DNA of 64,000 bases from Candidatus Microgenomates bacterium (GCA_049523135.1 JBEKNE010000001.1:455009-519008); one strand, 5' to 3'. Counted from the first letter of the stretch, positions 6,783-47,322 are shown. Notes: generated from the sequence alone by a model not told the origin. A program made the numbers and translations.

Positions 6783-8147
6783 ATGATAATAGACCCTACA
6801 ATTTTTAAAGACTACGATATCAGAGCCATTGCCGGGAAACAGGTCGATGAAGAAGGAATGGTTCGTATCGCCCAGGCGATTATCAAAGTATTTTCTCCTA
6901 AACAAGTTCAAATTGGTCACGATATGCGAATAACTTCTCCCTTATACCACAGATTGTTCATTGAAACATTTATTAATGCTGGTATTAATGTTTTTGACTT
7001 GGGTTTTGTTTCTACGGACATGCTTTACTATGCGGCCGGTGTTTATGATGAAGATTTATCGATAACAATTAGTGCGTCGCATAACCCCCCTGAATATAAC
7101 GGAATAAAAATGGCCAAGAAAGGCTCTCTTCCTGTTAGCGAGACTTATCAAATTAGAGATCTTGCTATTTCGAACGAAGATCTGACTTCGAAATCTGATA
7201 AAAAGGGAGTTTTGAAAAAAAGAGACATTAAAGAAGAATGGGTAAATCATCTCTTGAAATTTATTGACGTATCTAAAATGAAACCATTTAAGGTTGTTTG
7301 TGATACGGGAAACGGAATGGCTGGGTATTATTTGCCTCGATTAGAAGAAAAGCTTCCATGGAAAGTAACACGTCTTTTTTATAAATTGGACGGAACATTT
7401 CCCAATCATCCTGCGAGTCCAATTGAAGAAAAAAATCGGTTGGATTGTGTTAATAAGGTTAAGAGTGAGAGCGCGGACTTTGGTTTAGTGTTTGACGGAG
7501 ATGGTGATCGTGTATTTATGATTGATGAAAAAGGCAGAGCTCTTTCAGGAACGATAATGACTGCGATAGTTGCAGAGAACGTTCTTAAGAATAAACCAGG
7601 ATCAATAATTATGTACAATGCCATAGTGGGTCGTGTAGTGCCTGAAGTTATAATCCGAAATGGAGGCAAGCCGGTTCGCGTACGTGTTGGTTATACGTTA
7701 ATCAAAAAGGCAATGAGAGAACAAGATGCTGAATTTTGCGGAGAACACTCCGGACATTATTTCTTTAAGGATAATTTCTTTGCGGATTCGGCTATTATTG
7801 CGGCGCTTCTTGTTGCAGAGATGATGTCAGTGAAGAATAAAAAATTGTCCGAACTTTATGATGAATATGATAAATATAAGAGCTCTCAGGAAATAAATTT
7901 CACTGTCGATGATAAAGAAAAAGTTATGAAGTCCATTGAAGCTGAGTTCAAAGATTCCGCCGATTCTATAGACTGGCTTGATGGGGTCTCTGTATGGTTT
8001 AAGGACTATTGGTTTAATGTCAGACCTTCCAATACGGAGCCGCTATTAAGATTAAATGTCGAGGCGGACAATTCAATCCTTTTGGAGGAAAAGATTAAAG
8101 AACTGGTAGCAAAGATTAAATCACTGGGAGGAAAAGAAAAAATATGA
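6783..8147 (+). CDS. phosphomannomutase/phosphoglucomutase (alpha-D-phosphohexomutase)
   Basis: Active-site SASHNPPEYNG, metal-binding FDGDGDR, and sugar-binding loop GEHSGH. Confidence 0.85.
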   Translation: MIIDPTIFKDYDIRAIAGKQVDEEGMVRIAQAIIKVFSPKQVQIGHDMRITSPLYHRLFIETFINAGINVFDLGFVSTDMLYYAAGVYDEDLSITISASHNPPEYNGIKMAKKGSLPVSETYQIRDLAISNEDLTSKSDKKGVLKKRDIKEEWVNHLLKFIDVSKMKPFKVVCDTGNGMAGYYLPRLEEKLPWKVTRLFYKLDGTFPNHPASPIEEKNRLDCVNKVKSESADFGLVFDGDGDRVFMIDEKGRALSGTIMTAIVAENVLKNKPGSIIMYNAIVGRVVPEVIIRNGGKPVRVRVGYTLIKKAMREQDAEFCGEHSGHYFFKDNFFADSAIIAALLVAEMMSVKNKKLSELYDEYDKYKSSQEINFTVDDKEKVMKSIEAEFKDSADSIDWLDGVSVWFKDYWFNVRPSNTEPLLRLNVEADNSILLEEKIKELVAKIKSLGGKEKI

Positions 8148-11448: not shown

Positions 11449-12720
11449 ATGAGTAAGATTAAAAAAATTTGGGCTCGTGAAATACTTGATTCAAGGGCTA
11501 TTCCAACCGTTGAAACTGCCTGCATGCTTGATAACGGACAAGTCGCAGTTTCATCTGTTCCCGCGGGCACGTCAACAGGAACACATGAAGCGCTGGAGCT
11601 TAGGGATGAAAATAATCCCAGATATCTCGGGTTTGGGGTTTTGCAAGCCGTGAACAATGTTAATTCTTTTCTTGGACCTGCCGTTACCGGAATGGATCCG
11701 GCCAATCAATCTGAAATTGACAAAAAATTGATTGAAATGGACGGAACGGAAAATAAATCAAAGTATGGAGCCAATGCTATTCTTTCAATTTCCGAAGTTG
11801 TCGTAAAAGCCGGTGCAATAGCCGCAAAACAATCACTTTACGGTTGGATTTTTTCAATGGCTTCAAGAGCCGGAATTACTCAGACAGTCAAAGTTCCAAC
11901 TCCTCTTTTTAATATGATTAACGGAGGCAAACATGGTGCGGGGAATCTTGATTTTCAGGAATTTTGGGTAATACCCGGGTCTTCAAAGAAATATTCCGAA
12001 AGTTTGCAGATGGGTGTTGAAATTTATCTGACTATCGGTAGAAATTTGGCACACCGCGGGGCTATTCATTCCGTAGGAGACGAAGGCGGATATGCACCGA
12101 ATTTATTTACCAATGCGGATGCACTGGAGGTCTTTGTTGAATCCATCCGCCAGACCAAATATTCCCTAGGACGGGATGTATTTTTGGGATTGGATGTTGC
12201 GGCAAACAGTTTTTATAAAAACGGAGAGTATTTAATAAAAGACCGTTCCTCAACTTTAAGTGATTCCCAGCTTTTGGATTTTTACAAAGCTCTTTGTGAT
12301 CAATATAAACTTGCAATTTTGGAAGATCCCTTTCAGGAAGATGCGTGGAGCAGCTGGGCCAGTCTTACCAGTGAACTTTCTCAAAGTGTGGTTATTGTCG
12401 GAGATGATCTTTTGGCAACAAATCCGAACCGTGTAGAAAAAGCAATTAAAGAAAAATCCTGCAACGCAATCCTTATTAAGCCAAACCAAATAGGAACAAT
12501 ATCGGAAACCCTTAATGTAATAAAAATGGCAAGAGACGCAAAATGGACTGTTATTGTTTCCCACAGATCCGGTGAAACAAACGACAGCTTCATTGCGGAT
12601 TTCGGCGTGGGAGTTGCGGCTGATTATGTAAAATTCGGTGCTCCGGCCCGCGGTGAACGTGTTGCCAAATACAACAGGCTTTCTACAATAGAAACGGAAT
12701 TATCTAGGATTAACAAATGA
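11449..12720 (+). CDS. eno: enolase
   Basis: IWAREILDSRAIPTVE...SVPAGTSTGTHEALELRD; full-length enolase signature. Ends with an ATGA overlap into gpmI. Confidence 0.95.
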   Translation: MSKIKKIWAREILDSRAIPTVETACMLDNGQVAVSSVPAGTSTGTHEALELRDENNPRYLGFGVLQAVNNVNSFLGPAVTGMDPANQSEIDKKLIEMDGTENKSKYGANAILSISEVVVKAGAIAAKQSLYGWIFSMASRAGITQTVKVPTPLFNMINGGKHGAGNLDFQEFWVIPGSSKKYSESLQMGVEIYLTIGRNLAHRGAIHSVGDEGGYAPNLFTNADALEVFVESIRQTKYSLGRDVFLGLDVAANSFYKNGEYLIKDRSSTLSDSQLLDFYKALCDQYKLAILEDPFQEDAWSSWASLTSELSQSVVIVGDDLLATNPNRVEKAIKEKSCNAILIKPNQIGTISETLNVIKMARDAKWTVIVSHRSGETNDSFIADFGVGVAADYVKFGAPARGERVAKYNRLSTIETELSRINK

Positions 12721-14384
12721 ACGAAGAACCTTCAAAACTCGTGATACTGGTTGTAATGGACGGTTGGGGAATAGCGGCTCCGGGGCCGGGAAATCCAATA
12801 TCGCAAGCAAATATACCGAATATGAATAAATTCATGGCCTCATATCCCCACACTCAATTGCAGGCTTCTGGAGAAGCTGTGGGTCTGCCCAGAGGTGAGG
12901 TTGGAAATACCGAAACGGGGCATCTTAATATCGGTGCTGGCAGAATTGTCTATCAGGATTTGCAAAGAATAAATATGAGTATTGCTGAAGGCAGTTTTTA
13001 TGAAAACCCGGTACTTATCGGAGCAATAGATCATGCCCGCTCATTTAACAGTAATCTTCACTTAATTGGGCTTATCGGTGCCGGAGGAGTTCACAGCAAT
13101 ATTGAGCATCTTTTTGCTCTTATCGAACTTGTTAAAAGACATGAATTTAACAGAGTTTATTTGCATCTTTTTACGGACGGGCGCGATTCGCCTCCTACTG
13201 CCGCAAAAATTTATATTTCAGAACTTCGTAAGGTTATGGCAAGAGAAGGTGTTGGTCAAATTGCTTCAATAATGGGCAGATATTGGGCGATGGATAGGGA
13301 TAGACGTTGGGACAGAACCGCAAAAGCATATTTTGCATTGACTAAAGGCGAAGGTCGGCTGGTTAAAACACCCGAGGAAGGAATTGATGCGTCTTATGCT
13401 GAAGCGAAAACTGACGAGTTTATAGAGCCTTGCATAATCACGGCTCCTGACGGAAAACCGCTCGCACTGATTAAAGAAAATGATTCCGTAATCTTTTTTA
13501 ATTTTAGAATAGACAGACCAAGACAACTGACAAGTGCTTTTGTTTTTGAAGATTTTAGCAAGGCAAATCAAACTGTTGGTTTTGATCCATATCTGGTTAA
13601 ATATCAAAAATCCCATTTGGCTACTCAGCCAACTCAAGTTACGGAACCCTTCGCAAGGGGTCCAAGAATTAATAATCTGTATTTTGCCACAATGACTGAA
13701 TATGGAAAAGCTATTGTTGAATCCGGTGCAAAAGTCGCTTACCCTCCTGAAATTGTTAAATTACCCTTAGGTCTGGTAATTTCAGAAGCCGGATATAAGC
13801 AGTTGAGAGCGGCAGAAAGTGAAAAGGAAAGATTTGTAACTTTCTATTTTAACGGTCAGCAGGAAGCTGCGTTTGAAGGGGAAGACCGACTGATAGTTCC
13901 TTCTCCGAAAGTTGCAACTTATGATTTGAAACCCGAGATGAGTGCAAGAGAACTAACCGAGGGAGTCTTGCAGAAGCTTAAAGAATCTCCGGATTACAAA
14001 TTTGTTTTAATTAATTTTGCAAACCCTGACATGGTCGGCCACACCGGAAATATCGGAGCGGCCGTTAAAGCATGTCAAGTCGTTGACGAGTGTTTAGGCA
14101 AACTTAGCGATTGGGTTCTTGCTTATGGCGGCTATATGATTGTAACTGCAGATCACGGAAATGTTGAGGAAATGATTGACCAAAAGACGGGAGCAATCGA
14201 AACGGAACACAGCAGTAACCCCGTACCTTTTATCGTGGTTTCTCAAAAACTTATGGGAAACCCCGTTACCCTGATGACAGGAATTTTGGCGGATATCGCA
14301 CCAACTGTTTTAAAACTGATGGATTTGGAGGTTCCTTCCACAATGACCGGCCATAATTTATTGGATTCACAATTTAAGCTTTAA
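12717..14384 (+). CDS. gpmI: 2,3-bisphosphoglycerate-independent phosphoglycerate mutase
   Basis: VVMDGWGIA...NTETGHLNIGAGR...TADHGN matches iPGM motifs. Confidence 0.93.
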   Translation: MNEEPSKLVILVVMDGWGIAAPGPGNPISQANIPNMNKFMASYPHTQLQASGEAVGLPRGEVGNTETGHLNIGAGRIVYQDLQRINMSIAEGSFYENPVLIGAIDHARSFNSNLHLIGLIGAGGVHSNIEHLFALIELVKRHEFNRVYLHLFTDGRDSPPTAAKIYISELRKVMAREGVGQIASIMGRYWAMDRDRRWDRTAKAYFALTKGEGRLVKTPEEGIDASYAEAKTDEFIEPCIITAPDGKPLALIKENDSVIFFNFRIDRPRQLTSAFVFEDFSKANQTVGFDPYLVKYQKSHLATQPTQVTEPFARGPRINNLYFATMTEYGKAIVESGAKVAYPPEIVKLPLGLVISEAGYKQLRAAESEKERFVTFYFNGQQEAAFEGEDRLIVPSPKVATYDLKPEMSARELTEGVLQKLKESPDYKFVLINFANPDMVGHTGNIGAAVKACQVVDECLGKLSDWVLAYGGYMIVTADHGNVEEMIDQKTGAIETEHSSNPVPFIVVSQKLMGNPVTLMTGILADIAPTVLKLMDLEVPSTMTGHNLLDSQFKL

Positions 14385-36476: not shown

Positions 36477-36501
36477 GAGTTGTAATATTATATCAAATTT
36501 G

Positions 36502-36574
36502 TCGGAGTGCCCGGGCTCGAACCGGGGACCTCCACGTCCCAAACGTGGCGCGCTACCAACTGCGCTACACTCCG
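36502..36574 (-). tRNA. tRNA-Pro(UGG)
   Basis: Manual fold: acceptor CGGAGTG/CACTCCG; anticodon stem CACGT../..ACGTG with loop TTTGGGA; T-arm CCCGGTTCGAGCCCGGG. Confidence 0.88.
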
Positions 36575-36764
36575 TGGTGCCGAACTCGGTGTTATACTCG
36601 GACCTGTTCAGCTACTTCAATGATACCACACCTGAGGCTGGGATTCTGGCCGGACAGTTGGAACTTTTGAAGGCTCACCTGGGTGAAAGTTTTGCGATTG
36701 TTCATTAGTATTGTTTTCTTAGAGCCCTTGTGCTACATTCGACTCATCTTCTGCCTGGGTATAT

Positions 36765-38003
36765 ATGTTTCGCGAACTTAATTTTGTTTTAACATTTATT
36801 CGGGATTTTATTGTCAAAAATGATTTGATTGCAAAATATTCCGTTCTGTCTGGGCACTACAGTAAAGCACAAGAAACAGGAACTGCGGGATCTGGGGAAG
36901 GTCTAAAGGACGAAATAGATACAGTTAAGAAACAAATTTTTGAAATACACGCTTCCGTAAATTTTGAGGTTTGGAGTTCTCCCAAAATAAGCATTCTGGA
37001 GCGGATGGTGGCTAAAGACTATATAGGGCCAGGTGCCATGACTGCGTTAAATAAGATTTTGAATGATAGCATCGGAAATCCCCTTAAAATCTCACAGGCA
37101 ATAACGGTTTTTCAAAATTCCACAAACGAACTCTTGACCCGGACGAACCAGGCGATTGCTACTTTAGGCTTAACAAATTTTACCGAGGACGTCCCAGCGG
37201 ACCGGCAACTATTGGAAATCAGTTTCTCCGATAACTCTCTAACCAAAAATTTCTGGTATCTAAAGGATACGGCTGCCGGATGGAGCACAATAATACGTGC
37301 CGTAACTAGACTAACTGGTGACAACTTTGAGACTGTTGAGATTCTCTCTCAAACCAGCGGCTCTCCCGATTGGGGTATTTTAATTTCTTCAACCAAAGCC
37401 GCTAGTGGGGTTTTAATTCAGCTCGTAGATTTTGCAATGAAACTTAAAACTATAAAAGATACCTTTTTCAAAAAGAAGGCCAAAGTTGAGGATGTTGGAC
37501 TTCCCAATAAAAAGACGCTTGAACTTGCAATAAAAGATTTGGAAGTAGAAAGGGATGACGGCTTCAAAGCAAAGCTTGGAGAATTTTCCATAAAAATGGT
37601 TAATGAAAGTAAGGGTGAAATTAAAGGTGAAAACAAGAACGAACTGAATACACTCACCCAAACAGCACTGAAAATTTTAGAGAATTTTGCAAGTTCGGGA
37701 GTAAAAGTTGTAGACCCGAGAGAAATAGTTCCTGTCCCGGAAGCGGACACGCCAACAACTCTTGGTCCAATCTATTCGGAAGATAAGGTCCTTAGTGATG
37801 AAGTTCGTGTTTTGTCAGAAGCTGAAAAACAAAAGTTTCTTGAAGCAAAACATGAAGAAATGGTGGACGAAATGGAAGTTTCAAAAGTACAGAAGCCAAC
37901 AGAAGAAATCGTTGAAGTTAAAAAAGGCCCGGGAAGACCACCCAAAACAAAACCAGCTACAGTAGTAGAGAAAAAGGTCAAAATTGTAGAAAAGAAAATT
38001 TAA
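36765..38003 (+). CDS. hypothetical protein with C-terminal Lys-rich AT-hook-like (GRPPK) tail
   Basis: No recognisable catalytic motif. C-terminal KKGPGRPPKTKP. Confidence 0.4.
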   Translation: MFRELNFVLTFIRDFIVKNDLIAKYSVLSGHYSKAQETGTAGSGEGLKDEIDTVKKQIFEIHASVNFEVWSSPKISILERMVAKDYIGPGAMTALNKILNDSIGNPLKISQAITVFQNSTNELLTRTNQAIATLGLTNFTEDVPADRQLLEISFSDNSLTKNFWYLKDTAAGWSTIIRAVTRLTGDNFETVEILSQTSGSPDWGILISSTKAASGVLIQLVDFAMKLKTIKDTFFKKKAKVEDVGLPNKKTLELAIKDLEVERDDGFKAKLGEFSIKMVNESKGEIKGENKNELNTLTQTALKILENFASSGVKVVDPREIVPVPEADTPTTLGPIYSEDKVLSDEVRVLSEAEKQKFLEAKHEEMVDEMEVSKVQKPTEEIVEVKKGPGRPPKTKPATVVEKKVKIVEKKI

Positions 38004-38551
38004 GCCTGCATCAGTCGTTGTTGGAATCTTTTTTCAATTTCTTCCATTTTCCATTGATTATCTTTTATCTTTGAAAGTTTTTCTTTAGCCTCCCTCTTTT
38101 TTATGGAATAGGTACCTGGGTCTTTAAGCTGGACCTTATAGGTAGTGTTATCAAGTTCATTAATACATTGCACAAGAGACGAGTAATCGCAAGCATAATT
38201 TATAAAATAGCGTGCATAATCTGCCCAATCTTGATAAACAAAACTCTTTTCATCTGCTGTACTATATTTATATTTTTCTTCAAGTCTTATAAATTTCTCT
38301 CTCAACGCAAGAGAAGTCTTTAATTGTTTAACTGTATTTTCTATTCGTTCCTTTTTACTTGCCTTAGACCCATCAAAAAGAAGATTTTCTGGTATATCAC
38401 TTACGTCTATCGGTTGTATAGTTTCCCAATTTTTTCCTGATAGAGTTGTATAAATCTCACTATTTATACTATTCTCAAGAGTAAGTTTTGCCACATGATA
38501 GTATTTATCTCCATATTCAGTAAGTTGTTTTATGTTTTTTCTAGCTTTCAT
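38000..38551 (-). CDS. hypothetical protein (last gene of the ftsK-like/Mrr-cat operon)
   Basis: ORF only. 35-nt gap to the upstream Mrr-cat gene on the same strand. Confidence 0.35.
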   Translation of the reverse strand: MKARKNIKQLTEYGDKYYHVAKLTLENSINSEIYTTLSGKNWETIQPIDVSDIPENLLFDGSKASKKERIENTVKQLKTSLALREKFIRLEEKYKYSTADEKSFVYQDWADYARYFINYACDYSSLVQCINELDNTTYKVQLKDPGTYSIKKREAKEKLSKIKDNQWKMEEIEKRFQQRLMQA

Positions 38552-38586
38552 TAATCACGATTATACACTTGTTTTAAATATCGTAT

Positions 38587-39345
38587 TTAGGACAGACTTT
38601 CTAGTATACTTCCAATTTCGGGCAACTGATCACCCTCAATTAACAAAACATTATTTTTTTGAGCAAGGGCTTTTGCAGACCTGGTAAATGTAGAATTTGT
38701 GACAACGATAGCAAAGTCACCTTGATAATAATTTTTAGCTGCTACAATTTCCTGTACAGCTTTATTGCCAACCGGTTTTGTATAACGCTTCGCTTGTATA
38801 ATATATTTTCTGTTATTTTTTGAGGCTATCACATCTGCTCCCTGATCACCGGTTTTTGGAGTTCCCCTAACATCGTAGCCCAAATCTTTTAAATTGTGTT
38901 CAATGAATCCTTCAAAATCTACTCCACTCATATCATTAAGTGATGTCTCTTTAGGCAAATTTTTACCCTTTGTCTTGTAAAAATCTTTAAATATTTTATC
39001 AAGATCTTCAAAATATAGTTTGATAAAAAACTGGGATAAATCTATATATTCATCATTTGTTTTAGAAAGTGCAAATCTAAGATATTGACCCATCTGTGAA
39101 ATCAAGATATCTCTAGGTGCTCCCGAGACTTCCATTCGTTCATTTTCTAAAAAAAGATTGTCCATAAATCTTTGGGAAATGCCAAGCGTCGAAGAAATTT
39201 TTTCAATACATCTTTGCTTTTCGGCCGCAACAGATTCCCAGTCCTCTTGCCCGTATTCATCAATGATTCCGACTTTCCTGGACGTTATTTCACAAAACTT
39301 GTTTATAACATCTCTGTTTTTATCCAAAAAACTTTTATATTCCAT
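38587..39345 (-). CDS. Mrr-cat (restriction endonuclease-like) domain protein with unknown N-terminal domain
   Basis: C-terminal FEGFIEHNLKDLGYDV...GDQGADVIASKNNRKYIIQAKRY...NKAVQEIVAA matches the PD-(D/E)xK Mrr catalytic core. Confidence 0.65.
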   Translation of the reverse strand: MEYKSFLDKNRDVINKFCEITSRKVGIIDEYGQEDWESVAAEKQRCIEKISSTLGISQRFMDNLFLENERMEVSGAPRDILISQMGQYLRFALSKTNDEYIDLSQFFIKLYFEDLDKIFKDFYKTKGKNLPKETSLNDMSGVDFEGFIEHNLKDLGYDVRGTPKTGDQGADVIASKNNRKYIIQAKRYTKPVGNKAVQEIVAAKNYYQGDFAIVVTNSTFTRSAKALAQKNNVLLIEGDQLPEIGSILESLS

Positions 39346-39349
39346 ATTT

Positions 39350-40789
39350 TTATTTGTTTTTATTACGCCACTTACCCCTTGTAAATTCCAAACCCCTGTT
39401 TCTCATGTCCCTTAAGTGCGATATCTCACTTTCAAAAGCTACATCCTTATCTACAATATCTTTTGGATATTTGGCCGCAGTCCCTTCGTGTTCATTTTTT
39501 CCATAAGTATCAAAAAATTCTTGAGCATTTTGTATCAAAACCTCCTGGGGTTTACTAGATCCATCAGCCGCTGCAATTACCCCCGCTGCTACAAGTTGGT
39601 CCATCATTCTTGCCGCACGAGCGTAGCCTATCGATAGCCTTCTCTGTAAAAGCGAGGCTGTAGCTCTATCATATTGGCAAACAGTTTTAACGGCTTCAGG
39701 AAAAAGATCGTCAACTCCGCTGGATGTTGAACTTACTGCCTTTTCTGAATACTGGCTAGGAATACCCTGATCTTTTATAAATGTAATTAACCTTATAAGG
39801 TCTTTATCAATTAACTTTGGGCTTTGTAAACAAGTGGGGAAGATCTCTTTGTTTTTAACGAACACGAAATCATGGGGAGCAAGGAATGATACCGATCGTG
39901 CTATTGTAGATTGATTTTCATTTCTTGCCTCGGATGAAAACGCAATTCTAGATTGAATCATGTTTACAAACTCCCTATCTGGCTTTGTACTTGATAAAAC
40001 AGCATAAATTCCAGTTTTTTGTCCAGTTTCAAAAATTCTACCTAGTCCGTCTCTGTACTCCATTGGTGAGAAGGCGTCAATTTCTAAACAATCGTCAATA
40101 AATGTAACTATGTAGGGTAGTGCTTGGAAGCCAGACATTTCATTATATACATCAATATTTTTAGCTCCTGCTTCTACAAAAAGTTTATACCGCCTACTCA
40201 TTTCTGCCATTAACCACCTAAGGGCGGAGATTACTTTTTCCGGTTCAACAATTACAGGCGATAGAAGATGGGGAATACCGTTAAAACAGGTTAAACCAAG
40301 TTTAGATGGATCAACAATTATGAGTTTTACCTCACTTGGTGAAGCCCTGAATAGTAAAGATGCTAAAAATATTTTTATTAAAGAAGTCTTACCTGAATTG
40401 TCATTTCCAGTAATCAATAAGTTTGAAGTAATTGCGAGATCACTTGATATGGGATTTCCTAGAGCGTCAAAGCCCAAGGCCACTCCCAACTTTGAAGTAA
40501 TTTTTCGCATAGGTTCACTTAACAGAATTGAATAGAATGAACTTTGCTCACCGTCAAGTAAGGACACCGGCGGATACTTCCAAATTCTCTCTTTCCCCGG
40601 AACATTACTGACTAGTTTTTGCTCGAGTGGCTCCTTAGGGACGTAGTTGATTCGAGGCGAAACCTGTTTGTAGGCCGTAAAAAGAGGCTTTGTCTCTAAT
40701 GCTGATATACCCTTATTCTTTCGTTTGGAACTGACCGCTAGAACAAGAATAACTAAAATAGCAAGTACTACCCAACCCATTTGAAACAA
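39350..40789 (-). CDS. ftsK: FtsK/SpoIIIE-family DNA translocase (short, single TM, gamma winged-helix present)
   Basis: Walker A ITGNDNSGKTSLI; motor-domain motifs; C-terminal gamma-domain LLQRRLSIGYARAARMMDQLVAAGVI. Confidence 0.78.
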   Translation of the reverse strand: MFQMGWVVLAILVILVLAVSSKRKNKGISALETKPLFTAYKQVSPRINYVPKEPLEQKLVSNVPGKERIWKYPPVSLLDGEQSSFYSILLSEPMRKITSKLGVALGFDALGNPISSDLAITSNLLITGNDNSGKTSLIKIFLASLLFRASPSEVKLIIVDPSKLGLTCFNGIPHLLSPVIVEPEKVISALRWLMAEMSRRYKLFVEAGAKNIDVYNEMSGFQALPYIVTFIDDCLEIDAFSPMEYRDGLGRIFETGQKTGIYAVLSSTKPDREFVNMIQSRIAFSSEARNENQSTIARSVSFLAPHDFVFVKNKEIFPTCLQSPKLIDKDLIRLITFIKDQGIPSQYSEKAVSSTSSGVDDLFPEAVKTVCQYDRATASLLQRRLSIGYARAARMMDQLVAAGVIAAADGSSKPQEVLIQNAQEFFDTYGKNEHEGTAAKYPKDIVDKDVAFESEISHLRDMRNRGLEFTRGKWRNKNK

Positions 40790-40982
40790 TTATAACTCTA
40801 TTATTAAATTTGCGTAGATGTTTTTGTGTTTCGGTCGGATTAGCCGTACAACCGCCATTTTGCGACGCAAATTCGAGGCTAACAACTTAATTTTCAATCG
40901 CCTCAGGCATAAACCCAATTAATTTACAGCCTATAATTAGAGCTTTTTGATTATGTACCTATGTTAAAATAGATGTGGATAA

Positions 40983-41822
40983 ATGTTAAACGGAACGCTA
41001 CAAAAAATTAAAGACACAGGATCTGAGGACCCATTCAATGCTCGACTTATGTTCGAAATTTTTAGTTTGCGTGACAAGATGGTAAAGAGTGATCAAGAAC
41101 GCCTACTTTTCGATAATTTCTACAATCCGATCCTGGAAACCATGGAGGAGACAGAGGATGCTTTTAAAAATGTAGTTAATATTATTAATAACCACAAGGC
41201 AAAAGTTGAAAACGGCTCAATTATAAAATTTCAGCATGATGTAATCGAGGTGAGTGAATCGATTGATAAGGAACTGAAGAAAAATTTTAAAGACTTTTTT
41301 GTAAAAGGCAATCGTGCAATGGATTTACTTGTCCCCTTCTTCAAGAATTACGGGTATTCAATTGGATTTGTTTTTAAGAATGACAAGGATTTTCTCGCAG
41401 GAGCAAGAAAATTTTCGGAAAAACATAATGAAGAAAAACACTCCAACTTTTTGAAGATGATTGAAGCTGACAGAAAACTATGGTTGCCACTTTTTGTTTC
41501 ACAAAGACAAGAGATAGAACACGAGGGTACGTCGCTTCCCGGTACGAAATATATGAAGACAAGGCCGGGTGAAGTTGCAGCTGTTTTTCCGAAAATTGAC
41601 GGCATCGAAATAACTGAACTTTTAAAAGGTAAATGGTGGACGCTTTTCGAGTTTGTCGAAGACTGCGTGGTAGCTTTAATAGACTTTAAACTTGAAGACC
41701 CCTGGATTATTGTACAAATTCCAGAAGGAAAACGGGATATAACTATGCCGTTGAAATATACCACCTCCGTTAAAGGATTTGCAGAATTTTTAGAAGCTGA
41801 AAGATTGAAAAAATCGCAATAA
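40983..41822 (+). CDS. hypothetical protein (first gene of putative integrative element)
   Basis: ORF only. Confidence 0.35.
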   Translation: MLNGTLQKIKDTGSEDPFNARLMFEIFSLRDKMVKSDQERLLFDNFYNPILETMEETEDAFKNVVNIINNHKAKVENGSIIKFQHDVIEVSESIDKELKKNFKDFFVKGNRAMDLLVPFFKNYGYSIGFVFKNDKDFLAGARKFSEKHNEEKHSNFLKMIEADRKLWLPLFVSQRQEIEHEGTSLPGTKYMKTRPGEVAAVFPKIDGIEITELLKGKWWTLFEFVEDCVVALIDFKLEDPWIIVQIPEGKRDITMPLKYTTSVKGFAEFLEAERLKKSQ

Positions 41823-42038
41823 AATGAGCTATAATGCGGTAGTTAGGACCTAACCCTATTCAAATAGGTATGGTTAAAGAAAACCAGTAACGAGCAGAAA
41901 GCTCTCGTTGGAGCATCGTTACTGGTCACGGTTCCGAAAGGAATTGTGGGTGCCGCAAGGCATCGCCGACGGGAGCTTTTTATTTTGTATATATAAAAGT
42001 CTTCCTTCGGCCACCTTGTAACGAAAGAGGGTGAGGGT

Positions 42039-42674
42039 ATGGAAACACAAACAACCAAGAAAGACGAATGGTACAAGAAACCCTTTGGGGTGGTTTTAAT
42101 GCTACTTCTCTTTTTCCCAATAGGTCTTTACTTGATGTGGAAGTATACAAATTGGAATTCAAGGGTTAAATGGGGAATAACCGGTTTCTTTGGATTAATG
42201 ATTGTTATTGAAGGTGTGGTTAGCAATTTCCAAACAAGTAGTCAGACAAACCCAGTAGCAACAGGCCAATCTCCTAGTTCCGAGGCTACAACGACGCCCA
42301 GTCCAACTCCTGTAAAACAATTGGATTTGAAAGTAACCAACCTGGTAGTTAAAAAAATTAATATGGACCAGTGTCGATATTTTTTTAACATTAAAAATGG
42401 AGAACCGAATAACTTTTCAGGAAAAGTTGGTGTAGCTTTACATAAACTTGATAGTGTCTGGCCTGAAGATGGAAGTGAAGTACAGATTGATCAACTTGAA
42501 CCAAATTTATACAAAGTCTTTTATTTAGACAGTTCGCTTTGTCCGAATACTGTCGAGAAAGGTGGAGCTGCAACTTTTAGCTATACTGTAGAGGATGTAA
42601 ACGGGAATAAAGTTTTTGGAGAAGATCAGATACCGGTCACTAATCAATTTGAGGATGACACTATTAGTTATTAA
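42039..42674 (+). CDS. hypothetical membrane-anchored protein with Ser/Thr/Pro linker
   Basis: Two N-terminal TM helices, an S/T/P-rich linker, and a beta-rich C-terminal domain. RBS AGGGTGAGGG. Confidence 0.35.
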   Translation: METQTTKKDEWYKKPFGVVLMLLLFFPIGLYLMWKYTNWNSRVKWGITGFFGLMIVIEGVVSNFQTSSQTNPVATGQSPSSEATTTPSPTPVKQLDLKVTNLVVKKINMDQCRYFFNIKNGEPNNFSGKVGVALHKLDSVWPEDGSEVQIDQLEPNLYKVFYLDSSLCPNTVEKGGAATFSYTVEDVNGNKVFGEDQIPVTNQFEDDTISY

Positions 42675-42739
42675 AAATCTGAAAAATATAGGGTTATTAC
42701 AAACTATTCAGGTTTGCTTACCTAGACTATAATTTCCCT

Positions 42740-43258
42740 ATGAGAAAATATGACTGGCCCAACCTGAAGCAGGAATTCCTCACAGGGAAGTGGCTAAGTG
42801 TGGCCACTTTCTTTCGGGAAAAGGGTATCAGAAACAACTCACGCAGTAGGCTCAACGCTTCAGGATGGATTAAAGAAAGAAAAAACGATTTAGAACAGAT
42901 CGTCTCAAAATCCAAGGAAAGGATTATTGAAAGTGAGGTGGAGATCAGAATAAGGCAAGCTGAGGCTGCTAAGACGATGCAGCGGGTTGGATTAGAGAGA
43001 TTGGATAAACTATCCCCTGAGACGGCTGAAGACGCCAGAAAGCTCGTTACATCAGGCCTGGAACAGGAGCGTAGAGCTCTTGGACTTGAAGGCACGACTC
43101 ACCCTCAAAGACTGACACAAATCAATTTCAATGAACTTCCAAAGACTAAATTTGATGCAATGTTAGACGGCAAAAGTGCAGAGGAACTTTTGGAATTGCT
43201 AGCTGAAATAAGAAAGGAAAGAGAGCGAAGAAGAAATCTCGCAGTGACAGTGAAGTGA
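42740..43258 (+). CDS. phage terminase small subunit-like HTH protein
   Basis: N-terminus KYDWPNLKQEFLTGKWLSVATFFREKGI...ASGWIKERK follows the KxDWxxIKxEYxxG...GW pattern of XtmA/YqaS-type small terminases. Coiled-coil C-terminus. Confidence 0.4.
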   Translation: MRKYDWPNLKQEFLTGKWLSVATFFREKGIRNNSRSRLNASGWIKERKNDLEQIVSKSKERIIESEVEIRIRQAEAAKTMQRVGLERLDKLSPETAEDARKLVTSGLEQERRALGLEGTTHPQRLTQINFNELPKTKFDAMLDGKSAEELLELLAEIRKERERRRNLAVTVK

Positions 43259-43517
43259 CAGAACAGTGACAATTTCATCTCCATCCCCCTACCCCCGGTA
43301 TTCTCGAAGGCTGTCTGTGCGTGCATACGTATGGCACTTCAAAAACATGAGCAATTTTTTGAAAAGTTATGCTTTTTGTAAAATTTAGGCACGGTATTTT
43401 TGTAACTTCAACCTTTTTAGCTTCGTTTTGTTGTGAGAGTCACAAATCTTGACACGAAAACTGCTATCGGTCTAAAGTTGGGGTAATAGGTGTAGATCTG
43501 TAGAAATGCAGCGATCA

Positions 43518-43547
43518 GCACAGGCCTTGAACGGTCTGTGCTTTTTT
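43518..43547 (+). terminator. rho-independent terminator-like hairpin
   Basis: GCACAG-(12 nt)-CTGTGC followed by TTTTTT. Confidence 0.4.
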
Positions 43548-43734
43548 GATGCCTAAACAAATGAAAGATAGAGTAACACAGACAGAACCAAACGTTATCG
43601 CCCAAAAGTGCCCGGTGTGCAACGGCTTCGGCACGGTTTCATTCCAGAAAATTAAATGTCATGCCTGTGACGGTAAAGGTTTTATTTTAATCCCCGCAGA
43701 GATAGATAGAAAGAAATATGAAACAACCTTCTAA
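43546..43734 (+). CDS. small zinc-finger protein (two CxxCxGxG repeats, DnaJ-CR-like)
   Basis: CPVCNGFG and CHACDGKG. Likely ATG start at 43549. Confidence 0.4.
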   Translation: MMPKQMKDRVTQTEPNVIAQKCPVCNGFGTVSFQKIKCHACDGKGFILIPAEIDRKKYETTF

Positions 43735-44023
43735 AACATTTACACCTGAAATATCAAGAGTCCTCGAGCTTTATGAAGAAGCTGACAACCTGGCTAAAGA
43801 TTTGTTGATAAAAAGTTGGAAATTAAAGAATGAGGACAAGCAAATCGCAAGACTCTATTACCAAAAAGCCTGTAGAGAGCGACAGAAGCTAGCTGAGCGT
43901 TTGGTTGATATAACAAAAGGATGGGAGCTGCGAGAGACCAGGGGCTTTGAAAGAGTCGGAGAGACTTTGATCCGCATGATTAAGGACGGATATTTAGATT
44001 TGGAGGTTAAAAATGAGAGTTAG
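43718..44023 (+). CDS. hypothetical protein
   Basis: ORF only. Confidence 0.3.
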   Translation: MKQPSKTFTPEISRVLELYEEADNLAKDLLIKSWKLKNEDKQIARLYYQKACRERQKLAERLVDITKGWELRETRGFERVGETLIRMIKDGYLDLEVKNES

Positions 44024-44507
44024 AGAATGGTTTGTAATTCTACAGCAGAGTGAAGTTGAAAAATGTAAAACACCATCTCAATTACTCGTCTACGCTTCAA
44101 TTAAAAGCTTTTGCGGTAACGGAAAAATTCATGCAGCATTATCCTACCGCGATATCTCTAATAGATCAAAGTTTTCTGTCGGATGGACAAAACCGGTAAT
44201 TGAACAATTAAAAAAATTAGGACTTGTGTTTACTCACGGAACAGAAATAAGGAGAGGCGGAACTGTGGAAGTGTTTAGTGTTGGAACAGTAGATAGCGAC
44301 CAAGGTGTTCCGTCCGTCTCAATTAGTGTTCCGCAAGCAGGCACCAAAAACCAGCAAAGTAAAAAAGTAAATAAAAACAAACAACATCCTTATAAGAATC
44401 AGAAAGAATCCCTGACTGCCGCCCCGCAAGCATTGCCCAGCGACTTAAAAGAAAAATTATGGAGCTGGGCTGAAATAATTTCCGAGAAGGGAGGCGGTCA
44501 TGTCTGA
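44013..44507 (+). CDS. hypothetical DNA-binding (possible winged-helix replication) protein
   Basis: ORF immediately upstream of, and overlapping, the ATPase gene. Basic, Lys-rich C-terminal half. Confidence 0.3.
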   Translation: MRVREWFVILQQSEVEKCKTPSQLLVYASIKSFCGNGKIHAALSYRDISNRSKFSVGWTKPVIEQLKKLGLVFTHGTEIRRGGTVEVFSVGTVDSDQGVPSVSISVPQAGTKNQQSKKVNKNKQHPYKNQKESLTAAPQALPSDLKEKLWSWAEIISEKGGGHV

Positions 44508-45432
44508 CTTTTTCGATATTGTTTCAAAAAAAGATCTCTCCGAAAAGATAACTTGCGGGATCTCTTCAATTGATAATTCTATTAAAGGTTTTACTGTCGG
44601 GGGCAATTACCTATTATCCGGGCCTAGAAAGTCAGGGAAAAGTAGTTTGTTGGTTGGCTTCGTAAATCATTGGTTGTCAAAATCGCTCGTTGTCGGCTAC
44701 ATAAATTCCGAGATGGATGAAAAACATCTCAACGACATGCTCCAGTCTAATTTCTTTGACAAGCGAAAAGATGAATTAACTGCAAACAACGATATGGAAT
44801 ATAAAAACAGATTTCGTTCAAGTTTTTTATATTCCGGACCGACGGATATTCGTGGTAGTCAGGGTATAAGTTTGGATGGCTTGGAATCAGAAATTAGAAG
44901 ACTGATTAAAGCAGGTGCAAAAATCATAGTGATCGACAATCTTACAAAACTACAGGAATCAGCTCCAAGCGGGACACCGGGATATCAGAATTTGGCAAAA
45001 GGTGTTTCCATAGTTACCACTTTATGCAGAGATAATAACGTTCTGGGTTTTACTGTAATTCATACAAAGGATGAGCTCACTTTTACTGAAACTCCTGAAG
45101 GAATAGCCAAGGCAGTTGAAGACCATCTTCCTGAAAAGATATTTGAAAAATCTGTAACGATTTTAAGAAAACCAAGTTCTTCTTCAATTTACGGAGGGGG
45201 TAGTACAAAAACAGATTTACTCGGAACAATGCTCTTATGGAGGCCGTATCAATTCTTTTCCGATCCAAGTTATTCTTCGCTCGCAGCATTAATATTTGAA
45301 GATTTTAGAGGAGAAGCTCCGTTGGAAATGGTACGACTGATGTTTGACGGTTCTAAAAGTGTTTTTAAGGAAGATCTTTTGGAAAAGAATATCCGGAAAA
45401 TATTTGGAACGGAGGAAGCAGATGGAAAATAA
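44500..45432 (+). CDS. RecA-superfamily ATPase (DnaB C-terminal/KaiC/AAA_25-like), putative element replication helicase/loader
   Basis: GISSIDNSIKGFTVGGNYLLSGPRKSGKSSLLVGF is the Walker A layout typical of the DnaB-C/RepA family. Walker B IIVIDNLT. Confidence 0.55.
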   Translation: MSDFFDIVSKKDLSEKITCGISSIDNSIKGFTVGGNYLLSGPRKSGKSSLLVGFVNHWLSKSLVVGYINSEMDEKHLNDMLQSNFFDKRKDELTANNDMEYKNRFRSSFLYSGPTDIRGSQGISLDGLESEIRRLIKAGAKIIVIDNLTKLQESAPSGTPGYQNLAKGVSIVTTLCRDNNVLGFTVIHTKDELTFTETPEGIAKAVEDHLPEKIFEKSVTILRKPSSSSIYGGGSTKTDLLGTMLLWRPYQFFSDPSYSSLAALIFEDFRGEAPLEMVRLMFDGSKSVFKEDLLEKNIRKIFGTEEADGK

Positions 45433-45628
45433 AAAATCTGCTCCCCAATCACCTGACAGCTTCTTAACAAAGATTGAGGTAGAAGAGTTTAAAAAAATCG
45501 TAAAGGAATTATACGGGTTTGATCTTAATAATTCAGAGGCTGAAGATCAAGGTAGAAGATTAATCCAAATATTCGAGCTCATACAAAGGTTCGAACTGAA
45601 TCCCGATGTCGGGAAAAGATATAGTTGA
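45422..45628 (+). CDS. small hypothetical protein upstream of integrase (candidate directionality factor)
   Basis: ATG overlaps the stop of the ATPase gene. 68 aa, acidic. Confidence 0.25.
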   Translation: MENKKSAPQSPDSFLTKIEVEEFKKIVKELYGFDLNNSEAEDQGRRLIQIFELIQRFELNPDVGKRYS

Positions 45629-45665
45629 AAGGTGTTAAGAAAGGATTAAAGATTGGTTAAGAACT

Positions 45666-47267
45666 ATGAAAGCGACAATTATTGCTAGAGTTAGCAAAGA
45701 CGAACAAAAAGAAAATTCACCAGAAGCCCAAAGAGCAAGACTTTTAGCATATATAAAACGGTCAAATAAACTGATTTTGGATAGGGAATTTAATTTTGAA
45801 GAATCGGCCCATAGAGCAAAAGACCGAAAAAAATTTAATAATGAAGTTATTCCGTATCTTAAAAGCCAAAAAGAAACTATCGCTGTATGTTGTGACAAGG
45901 TAGACAGATTGTCTCGAGATTTTTTAGTGGGTCTACCCGCTCTTGAGGAACTTAGAAGAGAAGGAAAAATTGAAATTCATTGCCCATCGGACAATTTGAT
46001 TATACATAAAAATTCCCCTGCGACAGACCTTTTTCATTACAATATAGCATTAGCTCTCGCTCAGTATTATTCGGATAGTACTAGCGACAATGTCAAACGA
46101 GCTTTTGAGAGAAAAATTGCCCGGGGTGTTTATCCAAACCATGTGCCATTGGGATACTTAAATACGCCAGAGTTAGAAAAGGGTCACAGAGAAGTCCACG
46201 ATGATAAGGAAAGATGGCATCTTTGTCGAAAATGGTGGGATTTGATGCTGACCGGAATTTACACAGTAGAGGGCTCCCTTGAAGAAATTACTCGATTAGG
46301 ATTACGAAATTTGAGAGGCAACCCAATCTCAAGAACAACAGCTTACCGGTATTTTAGGGATATTTTTTACACCGGTAACTTCAAATTTAACAATATTGTT
46401 TATCCGGGTAGCCATGTTCCGATGATTACAATGACTGAGTGGATTAAAGTACAACATATTCTCGATAGTAAAGGTAAAAGAGGTAACGGAACAATTGACG
46501 ATTCATTCCAAAAAGCGTTTGAAGGAATGCTTAGGTGCGGTGAATGCAAGGCGAGTATCACGATGGAAAGGAAAATTAAGCATTACAAAAATGGTACAAC
46601 TCAGGTTATTTGGTATTATAGGTGTACGAAAAAGAAAGGACATTGTTCTCAACCATACTTAAATGCTAAAGATTTTGACCCTCAAATCCATAAATATATA
46701 TCAAGTTTAGAGATCAACCCAAAATTTGGAGATTGGATTAAGAAAGTACTTAAAAGGCGTAATGCATATGAATATGAATTTTCTCGTAAAAATAGGGAAA
46801 TAATTACTAAAAGACTAAATGAACTAGATACAAAGAAAGAGATACTTACGAAAATGAAGATGGATGGAATGGTTGACGAGGAGAAGTATCAAACTAAAAA
46901 GAATGCGTACTTAATAGAAGAGAAAGAGTTATTGGAGGAACAATTAGTGAAAACCACTGAAAAATGGGAATCTGTAGTAGACAATTTAATCAATTTCGCC
47001 TCTAATGTTAATAAATTATTCGAGTTTGGAGATATTTACACAAGGCAGTATGTATTAAAAATACTTGGCTCGGACCTGATTTTACTAGACAGAAAAGTTA
47101 AAATTGAGGCTAAAAAAGCGTTTATTTTCCTCCGGGACTATCAAGACAACTCACACACGGAAGATCTATGGCTCGAACCCAAGAATATGCCGTATTCTAG
47201 GACAAAAGAGGACTCTGCCTCTAAAAAATCCCTTACTGTGCCGAGGGCGGGACTCGGACCCGCATGA
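45666..47267 (+). CDS. large serine recombinase (integrase)
   Basis: Resolvase catalytic domain IIARVSKDEQ (Ser nucleophile) and Arg residues. Recombinase domain. Zinc ribbon CGECK...YYRCTKKKGHC. Coiled-coil. C-terminal codons PRAGLGPA lie inside tRNA-Leu. Confidence 0.9.
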   Translation: MKATIIARVSKDEQKENSPEAQRARLLAYIKRSNKLILDREFNFEESAHRAKDRKKFNNEVIPYLKSQKETIAVCCDKVDRLSRDFLVGLPALEELRREGKIEIHCPSDNLIIHKNSPATDLFHYNIALALAQYYSDSTSDNVKRAFERKIARGVYPNHVPLGYLNTPELEKGHREVHDDKERWHLCRKWWDLMLTGIYTVEGSLEEITRLGLRNLRGNPISRTTAYRYFRDIFYTGNFKFNNIVYPGSHVPMITMTEWIKVQHILDSKGKRGNGTIDDSFQKAFEGMLRCGECKASITMERKIKHYKNGTTQVIWYYRCTKKKGHCSQPYLNAKDFDPQIHKYISSLEINPKFGDWIKKVLKRRNAYEYEFSRKNREIITKRLNELDTKKEILTKMKMDGMVDEEKYQTKKNAYLIEEKELLEEQLVKTTEKWESVVDNLINFASNVNKLFEFGDIYTRQYVLKILGSDLILLDRKVKIEAKKAFIFLRDYQDNSHTEDLWLEPKNMPYSRTKEDSASKKSLTVPRAGLGPA

Positions 47268-47322
47268 GTTATGCACTCGAGGGCTCTTAAGGCCCTTGCG
47301 TATACCATTTCGCCACCTCGGC
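47239..47322 (-). tRNA. tRNA-Leu(UAA), class II
   Basis: Manual fold: acceptor GCCGAGG/CCTCGGC; anticodon stem AGGGC/GCCCT with loop CTTAAGA; long variable arm. The T-loop is TCCGAGT with an unusual C at position 55. The 3' 29 nt overlap the integrase CDS. Confidence 0.8.

Follow-up and report, generated by a model that had tools for sequence, protein, structure and literature searches.

A complete serine-integrase island with a TerS-family gene in a Candidatus Microgenomates chromosome: a probable phage satellite

The 64,000-nucleotide stretch of a Candidatus Microgenomates bacterium chromosome analyzed here (GCA_049523135.1 JBEKNE010000001.1:455009-519008; hereafter the window) contains what is almost certainly a complete serine-integrase island, bounded by attachment (att) sites and carrying a gene of the small terminase subunit (TerS) family, in a host that belongs to the candidate phyla radiation (CPR). 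We think that this TerS-bearing island most likely behaves as a phage satellite, and would put the probability at roughly 60%. An earlier note on the same DNA had described an element of about 6 kb with a satellite-like cargo; the ORFs (open reading frames) it listed are all present, on the plus strand between 42740 and 47267, but the att-bounded insert measures 10,661 bp, of which the DNA described there forms the right-hand half; further cargo consists of an FtsK-like ATPase, a LOOT RNA, an Mrr-like nuclease, and four uncharacterized ORFs. Below, L-numbers denote related loci or contigs that were compared, P-numbers denote homologous proteins, and coordinates are those of the 64-kb window; the features are collected in Table 1.

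The borders of the island follow from comparison with empty sites and with the att site of a related unintegrated element. The empty-site comparison was anchored on pyrG, the closest genomes being L012, L026, and L016 (pyrG 84-86% identical), which share the gene order pyrG, tRNA-Leu(taa), tRNA-Pro(tgg), tRNA-Gly(tcc), LytR_C; the gap between tRNA-Leu and tRNA-Pro is 3-35 nt in these three genomes, as against 10.66 kb in the window. An identical 7-mer, GTGCCGA, stands at both island junctions, and the attL core with the next two bases represents a displaced tRNA-Leu 3′ end (on the tRNA strand, TCGGCACCA); beyond this 7-bp identity, no long direct repeat or displaced tRNA-Leu 3′ fragment that might serve as an att site was found. 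In L109/L110, two metagenome contigs of the related unintegrated element, the 3′ end of the integrase gene (int) is contiguous with DNA that is 77% identical to 36577-36668, and in a four-way alignment L110 reads as the right arm of the window, GTGCCGA, and the left arm of the window, which is to say attP. The L110 arrangement and the identical attL and attR cores together define a mobile unit of 10,661 bp (36584-47237 plus one copy of the 7-bp core). The attP and attB sites share only this short core, and GC content is equal in the island and its flanks (37.8% and 38.8%). Taken together, these alignments show that a large serine recombinase inserted the island into the last bases of tRNA-Leu(UAA).

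The same site has been visited elsewhere. L113, from another genome, occupies the same tRNA-Leu/pyrG site with different cargo, and a close relative, L009, has a remnant of about 130 nt of a similar integrase 3′ end adjoining tRNA-Leu (11773-11966; 87% DNA identity over 159 nt including the tRNA, with no intact integrase), which to judge from the alignment is the scar of a lost or decayed element. The tRNA-Leu/Pro/Gly cluster 3′ of pyrG is also rearranged among related Woesebacteria/Microgenomates genomes (L010 11692-12458; L011 11663-11948; L020 11692-14270; L018 11731-15133), in some of which tRNA-Leu or tRNA-Pro is inverted and inserts of 0.4-3 kb are present; by this comparison the tRNA cluster downstream of pyrG is a recombination hotspot.

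The island carries a TerS homolog but no detectable large terminase subunit (TerL), portal, capsid, or tail gene: no TerL or portal homolog occurs anywhere in the 64-kb window and no structural gene was matched by PHROGs or Pfam, so that the absence of capsid and tail genes asserted earlier holds to the limit of detection. This satellite architecture, TerS without TerL, recurs in several independent elements. The closest TerS homologs (44-55% identity) lie in seven contexts that represent six distinct elements, all without TerL and portal (L001/L002, which are the same element, L003, L008, L115, L116, and L117), where TerS is accompanied, in various combinations, by an integrase, an HTH_17 Xis/AlpA-like gene, an HTH_3 repressor, small cargo genes, and a primase/helicase. 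The integrases of these small elements are of the tyrosine type, apart from a 579-aa serine recombinase in L115 (7747-9483) that is only 27% identical to that of the window; a divergence this great implies that serine integrases were recruited more than once by this type of element.

The identity of the 172-aa protein as TerS is read mainly from its relatives, of which sequence search found 5, profile search 46, and an exhaustive HMMER search of 1.84 billion representatives 401 at E<=1e-3. When 87 family members were scanned singly, 15 matched phrog_1206, 7 matched phrog_51, and 5 matched phrog_2606, all of them annotated "terminase small subunit", and none of the 87 matched a Pfam terminase family. 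In three long contigs, homologs (37-39% identity, tblastn) lie directly upstream of a GpA_ATPase/GpA_nuclease TerL that is followed by a portal gene; with a scan of IMG/VR using the clade alignment, and tblastn, the order terS, a spacer of about 100 bp, terL, and portal was found in at least 18 distinct uncultivated-phage contigs with TerS identities of 31-44% (L004-L007, L090-L095, L097-L102, L106, and L107; L089 and L096 are IMG/VR records of the L004 and L006 phages and were not counted as distinct). A ParB_N gene often precedes the homolog in the long phage contigs, and in L108 a homolog of the N-terminal domain precedes an SPP1-type portal. The AlphaFold2 (AF2) model of the 172-aa protein, built on a 46-sequence alignment (pLDDT 80.7), has a three-helix helix-turn-helix (HTH) bundle at residues 6-39, long helices at 43-91 and 96-113, a disordered stretch at 120-132, and a C-terminal helix; its top BFVD match is a "Terminase small subunit" (probability 0.99, TM 0.49/0.56, E=0.16). 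From the gene position of the homologs and the transitive profile evidence, and with weak structural support, we conclude that the 172-aa protein belongs to the TerS family.

As to the phages themselves, L004, L005, and L006 are rich in glycosyltransferase, methyltransferase, and UDP-glucose dehydrogenase-like genes around the packaging module and have intein-containing genes downstream of the portal, and one 82-kb contig with a TerS homolog is deposited in NCBI within an "Actinomycetota" metagenome-assembled genome.

The phage and small-element forms of TerS separate into two clades. In the alignment, the nearest neighbor is an element-clade sequence for 21 of the 22 provisional element-clade sequences (the exception is P0022) and a phage-clade sequence for all 19 phage-clade sequences; these assignments are provisional, genomic context having been verified for seven element-clade and three phage-clade sequences. 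Identity between the clades varies sharply along the protein: 29% in the HTH (residues 1-42), 28% in the long helix (43-91), 56% in the following helix (96-113), and 79% in a motif at residues 125-142, LTQVNVNLPKTKFD, within which the conserved C-proximal pattern is LTQ(I/V)N..LPKTKFD. The low identity of the HTH and the high identity of residues 125-142 fit a divergent DNA specificity combined with a shared TerL partner. The part of TerS that reads DNA would thus have diverged while the part that binds a partner was kept, and TerL docking is the obvious candidate role for the kept motif. A pattern of this kind, dependent on region, is expected of a satellite TerS that pirates the packaging motor of a helper, the strategy of the Staphylococcus aureus pathogenicity islands (SaPIs) (PMC11417361).

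The island also has a replication module of its own, in that a DnaB_C helicase, an HTH protein upstream of it, and a zinc-finger protein recur together in related elements. The 310-aa protein scores 31.8 bits against DnaB_C (gathering score 27), with weaker matches to KaiC and AAA_25, and matches phrog_19, "DnaB-like replicative helicase", at E=2.9e-16, which bears out its initial description as a RecA-superfamily ATPase of the AAA_25/DnaB-C kind. It has a Walker A motif, GPRKSGKS, and a Walker B motif, IIVID, without a DnaB N-terminal or primase domain, and it aligns both with residues 348-636 of the 694-aa L008 helicase (33%, E=1e-38) and with residues 277-542 of the 557-aa DnaG-Toprim-DnaB_C primase-helicase of L001 (27%, E=7e-29). 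On these alignments, the ATPase corresponds to the helicase portion of the primase-helicases of L008 and L001 and is an element-borne helicase of superfamily 4 (SF4); a housekeeping protein of the KaiC/RadA type, which was considered as an alternative, was rejected because the att sites enclose the gene, whose homologs are the primase-helicases of other elements. The gene for the 164-aa protein overlaps the helicase gene translationally, and its product shares 34% identity (E=8e-17) with that of the ORF that in L008 stands directly upstream of the helicase; the suggestion that it is a small winged-helix-like protein agrees with matches to HTH_36 and a DnaD-like loader family, both of them weak. 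The 62-aa protein, previously described as a CxxCxGxG zinc finger, does match DnaJ_CXXCXGXG and anti-TRAP models, and L001/L002 have a homolog (48% over 46 aa) in the same relative place, immediately upstream of their matching pair of genes. The same ORF gives weak PHROG matches to Q-like antiterminators.

Candidate cis-acting sites lie between and around these genes. Three of the five copies of AGTGACA in the 64-kb window form the phased array at the end of terS, and none of 100 shuffles reproduced the pattern; the array is a candidate protein-binding site, either pac/cosB-like or made up of replication iterons, and together with the AT-rich region that follows it may constitute a pac/cosB-like site, a replication origin, or both. 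A terminator-like hairpin about 40 nt after a promoter-like site in this region could be an attenuator or a small RNA.

If the island is a satellite, its life cycle might run as follows: i) the integrase, with the product of the conserved 68-aa ORF as directionality factor, would excise the element; ii) the excised circle would replicate from an origin in the intergenic region between terS and the zinc-finger gene; iii) the satellite TerS would bind the element's DNA at a site that may be the three phased AGTGACA repeats; iv) the C-proximal motif of TerS would recruit the GpA-type TerL of a helper phage from the clade with homologous TerS; and v) element DNA would be packaged into helper virions, either as concatemers, as in the minimalist chromosomal islands, inducible by phage, that are called PICMIs (PMC10803314), or by some other capsid-size mechanism. 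The left half of the island, with the FtsK-like ATPase, Mrr-like nuclease, LOOT RNA, and uncharacterized ORFs, would be accessory cargo, possibly for defense.

Several observations weigh against a satellite. First, the 172-aa protein matches no terminase model in Pfam, PHROGs, or NCBIfam (E<=1) or in PADLOC, solved structures gave no informative match, and tblastn with either the query or a phage-clade member found no GenBank phage homolog; the TerS assignment made in the earlier note is thus upheld by homolog context and transitive PHROG matches, and not by the terminase profile searches which that note had proposed. Second, the 412-, 183-, 279-, and 211-aa ORFs are uncharacterized, and the lack of capsid and tail genes is accordingly a limit of detection. 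Third, no master regulator of the Stl/AlpA type (HTH_3, HTH_17, or AlpA) was recognized in the island, although the related TerS elements have HTH_3/HTH_17 genes, and no capsid-size-redirection gene was found there. Fourth, no circular or concatemer contig signature was seen in the related small elements, and no helper phage is linked to this host. Fifth, the AGTGACA array, a candidate for the cos/pac-like repeat that the note had proposed to look for near terS, lacks conservation, in that a search of the related elements and phages found no phased repeats near their terS genes. Sixth, elements with related integrases carry other cargo (a Prim-Pol/D5_N primase-helicase in L111 and a different 10-kb cargo in L112-L114) and none has TerS, which makes the association of TerS with this integrase modular rather than a fixed family trait. 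Finally, the FtsK-like translocase suggests another possible route of transfer. The satellite logic originally put forward for the element is consequently supported by comparison (TerS, replication genes, and no virion genes detected) but neither by the HMM searches proposed for it nor by a master repressor or capsid-size-redirection gene.

A composite origin has a good though somewhat less than even chance of being correct, and is compatible with the satellite reading rather than opposed to it. A satellite core of about 5.3 kb (42.0-47.2 kb), in which the element of about 6 kb first described would be the ancestral unit, would have gained or been invaded by an unrelated 5.4-kb segment (36.6-42.0 kb, with the FtsK-like, Mrr-like, and LOOT RNA genes) that has its own biology, for example in defense. 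Related TerS elements are indeed about 6-7 kb long (in L001, from the integrase at 7927 to tRNA-Phe at 14111); homology to them is limited to the 211-aa ORF, terS, the zinc finger, the winged-helix protein, and the helicase; and the left half has the opposite gene orientation and defense-like domains. However, the far left end (36577-36668) is occupied by the P′ arm that has its homolog in the L110 attP, so that the whole 10.66 kb is now one excisable unit, and no internal att-like copy was found within the island.

We consider it unlikely that the island is an integrative, self-replicating, plasmid-like element spread by an FtsK/SpoIIIE-type double-stranded DNA translocase, or only vertically, in which the TerS-like protein is an HTH regulator or a partition or accessory factor of phage ancestry with no role in packaging. 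An integrase, replication genes, and an FtsK-type translocase make up the gene set of the actinomycete integrative conjugative elements (AICEs; AICE/TraB), and all three are present here, the ATPase having both FtsK_SpoIIIE and FtsK_gamma domains; the repeats at 43243-43271 could be a recognition site for a translocase or initiator, and the regulator and capsid-redirection genes typical of characterized satellites were not found. But an FtsK-family gene was seen in none of the other six small elements with TerS that were examined, from which it follows that TerS is retained independently of FtsK; the 79% identity of the C-proximal TerS motif between clades would be difficult to account for unless a phage partner were shared; and the FtsK-like gene, clustered with the Mrr-like nuclease on the minus strand, looks more like cargo. 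Still less probable, by a wide margin of belief, is a decayed prophage that lost its structural genes and kept int, replication genes, and terS, since despite the phage-type TerS and helicase genes and the evidence of decay at this site in the L009 integrase scar, both att junctions survive whole and their cores are identical, the integrase and its partner ORFs are intact, the bounds are exact against the empty site, and TerS without TerL is found in six independent elements with different integrases and a TerS clade of their own, which random decay would not repeat.

The position of the att core also bears on the integrase. The protein has PF00239 (E=5.7e-15), PF07508 (at threshold), and PF13408 (E=2.6e-8) domains, matches phrog_95 at E=3e-50, reads RVSKDEQ at residues 8-14, a catalytic-type motif, and is 60% identical over residues 135-530 to the L109/L110 integrase. 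The core lies in frame within int, and attP is therefore inside the integrase ORF. As integrated, the ORF ends in TVP-RAGLGPA, the last 7 codons and the stop being antisense to tRNA-Leu; as reconstructed for the excised form by joining across the core, it ends in TVP-NSVLYSDLFSYFNDTTPEAGILAGQLELLKAHLGESFAIVH and is 567 aa long, with a 41-aa C-terminal tail that is encoded in frame at the opposite end of the island (36577..36708). The L110 integrase, 568 aa long with the tail ...VPSTVLNSNLLRYFNDTTDEARILAGQLELLREHL..., matches this reconstruction. Integration thus exchanges a conserved 41-aa tail for 7 residues antisense to a tRNA. Over the first 35 codons of the tail, 12 of the 22 codons that differ from L110 are synonymous, which argues for selection on the peptide and not only on the DNA site. 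The exchange may bias the integrase between integrative and excisive states, and might affect directionality or stability.

Similar tails are found more widely. In a set of 656 integrase homologs, of which the C-termini of P0193-P0251 were viewed, many CPR integrases end in peptides that resemble translated antisense tRNA 3′ ends (VPRAGLGPA in P0204-P0206; ...GIEPT..., ...GFEPV..., and ...RGRDSNPRP... in others; see also L113 10001-11587), and a few, P0222, P0227, and P0237, have attP-type tails with the same L..Q(L/I)..L..HL motif; this suggests a family-wide habit of integration into tRNA genes with the 3′ end of int overlapping the tRNA. A scan of IMG/VR with the integrase gave no match. 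In the literature searched, which is incomplete and no proof of absence, we found no report of a serine integrase in nature whose ORF contains attP; such an arrangement is known for the SSV-type tyrosine integrases of archaea (PMC8371274).

Homologs of the 68-aa ORF lie directly upstream of int, or overlap it, in L109/L110, L111, and L113/L114, and the retention of a small homologous ORF beside every related int supports a role as integrase partner, with recombination directionality factor (RDF) as the candidate function. The ORF is present as first described, but it ends 38 nt before the start of int and so is not strictly coupled to it. Combining these threads, we would venture as a tentative and rather doubtful proposal that CPR bacteria have a satellite lineage of their own, in which a TerS clade with a TerL-docking motif and a divergent HTH pirates the packaging motor and the integrase tail senses the state of integration; the 41-aa tail, present only in the excised state, could then be a built-in sensor that sets directionality or enzyme stability.

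In the left half of the island, the 412-aa ORF yielded an unusable single-sequence AF2 model (pLDDT 41). The Mrr-type protein, which in PADLOC matches the ZorD Mrr domain (E=7e-22) as well as mREase_IV and PDC-S02, is candidate defense cargo. The FtsK-like ATPase has one N-terminal transmembrane helix and matches phrog_1358 (E=9e-39) and the ATPase region of PADLOC SspH; no second FtsK-like copy occurs within the 64-kb window, and the minus-strand cluster at 38000-40789 could be a defense system, a DNA-transfer module, or a captured ftsK. The LOOT RNA sits between the 279-aa ORF and the gene for the 211-aa membrane protein, and no copy of it turned up when related elements and phage loci were scanned. 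The C-terminal part of the 211-aa protein has a weak homolog in the TerS-bearing L008 (tblastn, 32% over 68 aa, E=3e-5).

Table 1. Features of the island and its borders, in window coordinates
Feature	Coordinates	Strand	Evidence or remarks
tRNA-Pro(tgg)	36501..36574	-	Left host flank; ARAGORN and Rfam
attL core GTGCCGA	36577..36583	.	Identical to attR core; alignments
P′ arm of attP	36577..36708	+	77% DNA identity over 92 nt to the L109/L110 segment directly after the integrase body
412-aa ORF, Lys/Glu-rich C-terminus	36765..38003	+	No match in Pfam, PHROGs, NCBIfam, PADLOC, or PDB
183-aa ORF, last gene of the minus-strand FtsK-like/Mrr-like cluster	38000..38551	-	ORF call, domain scans
Mrr-type restriction-endonuclease-domain protein, 252 aa	38587..39345	-	Pfam Mrr_cat E=6e-30
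FtsK/SpoIIIE-family ATPase with FtsK gamma domain, 479 aa	39350..40789	-	Pfam FtsK_SpoIIIE E=3.5e-35, FtsK_gamma E=5e-21
279-aa ORF	40983..41822	+	No significant match (Pfam, PHROGs, NCBIfam, PADLOC)
LOOT RNA, RF03000, full-length	41847..41964	+	Rfam 71.5 bits (gathering 46.4), E=4e-12
Predicted membrane protein, 211 aa	42039..42674	+	ORF call, domain scan
TerS homolog, satellite clade, 172 aa	42740..43258	+	Homolog context, transitive PHROG matches, AF2/BFVD
AGTGACA x3, exact 11-bp phasing across terS stop codon	43243..43271	+	Repeat count and shuffles
AT-rich stretch, TTTTTGWAA x3	43350..43548	+	Just before replication operon
Promoter-like site TTGACA-18-TAAAGT	43449-43478	+	Consensus match only
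Terminator-like hairpin (10-bp stem) and T-run	43517-43548	+	Consensus match only; abuts zinc-finger ORF
Zinc-finger protein, CxxCxGxG x2, 62 aa	43546..43734	+	DnaJ_CXXCXGXG E=1.4e-4; anti-TRAP NCBIfam E=9e-8
101-aa ORF, no function assigned	43718..44023	+	ORF call, Pfam/PHROG scans
Putative HTH/helicase-loader-like protein, 164 aa	44013..44507	+	Weak HTH_36 (E=0.07), phrog_186 DnaD-like loader (E=0.007)
DnaB-type (SF4, RecA-fold) helicase-domain protein, 310 aa	44500..45432	+	DnaB_C, phrog_19
68-aa ORF, candidate RDF	45422 (ATG)..45628	+	Homologs beside related integrases
Large serine recombinase, 533 aa as integrated	45666..47267	+	Pfam Resolvase, Recombinase, Zn_ribbon_recom; phrog_95
attR core GTGCCGA	47238..47244	.	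3′ end of tRNA-Leu acceptor stem
tRNA-Leu(taa), target, still intact	47238..47322	-	ARAGORN; Rfam 56.1 bits

Among known systems, the phage-inducible chromosomal islands (PICIs) of the SaPI type that have their own TerS are functionally closest: they too are islands of about 10-15 kb at a fixed att site, with an integrase, autonomous replication, and a satellite TerS homologous to phage TerS, and (for the island, to the limit of detection) without TerL, portal, capsid, or tail genes. The PICI and P4 integrases known to us are tyrosine recombinases, whereas that of the island is a serine recombinase; the helicase is of the DnaB-type SF4 rather than Pri-Rep (D5/SF3); no Stl/Str, AlpA, or cpm/ppi was identified; the presumed helper terminase is of the GpA (lambda) type; the host is a CPR bacterium; and no sequence homology to PICI genes was detected. 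The AICEs resemble the island in that they too are small, are integrated at tRNA genes, and bring together an integrase, a gene for replication, and one FtsK/SpoIIIE-type translocase, but the FtsK-like protein of the island has a canonical gamma domain and an Mrr-like nuclease as its neighbor, genes of the spd, kor, and nudix types were not recognized, and we know of no TerS in AICEs. The integrase shares with those of phiC31, Bxb1, TP901-1, CcrB, and XisF the Resolvase/Recombinase/Zn_ribbon_recom architecture, a short att core, and an adjacent small partner ORF, and differs from them in targeting a tRNA 3′ end, in having attP inside its ORF, and in having two alternative C-termini.

A comparison with the PICI-like elements (PLEs) of Vibrio cholerae is also instructive. 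To our knowledge these have not been reported to integrate in tRNA genes, and the RDF characterized for the PLE1-type recombinase is supplied by the helper phage. Their packaging depends on Gpi/GpsA/GpsB and pac mimicry, not on a TerS homolog, and none of their genes is homologous to those of the island. The earlier note thought that satellites with a serine integrase in a CPR-like host would be unusual; a serine integrase in a satellite does have a precedent, however, for PLEs are phage satellites mobilized through a large serine recombinase, which requires an RDF in order to excise them (PMC9638900), and they manipulate the packaging of the helper (PMC11417361). The PICMIs of the Vibrionaceae have an integrase, a small ORF, iolg, that is needed for excision, and a primase/replication gene, have no capsid-remodeling genes, and enter capsids of full size in the form of concatemers (PMC10803314), a mode that by analogy is plausible for the island too; PICMIs differ in having no terS, in adjoining fis, in using AlpA, and in their size of about 6 kb. 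By these comparisons, the island is not a member of any described satellite family.

In the literature we searched, which is incomplete and cannot prove absence, no phage satellite has been reported from Patescibacteria/CPR. If the satellite reading is true, it would add, within a major and uncultivated portion of the bacterial tree, a third tier of parasitism, in which a satellite exploits a phage that in turn exploits an episymbiotic CPR cell. The split of the TerS family into phage and satellite clades, with a motif about 79% identical and a differing DNA-binding domain, provides a testable molecular handle. Lastly, CPR bacteria seem to have a large family of serine integrases that are aimed at the 3′ ends of tRNAs and carry attP within the int ORF, and such enzymes bear both on the directionality of recombination and on the search for new serine integrases with defined, conserved targets.

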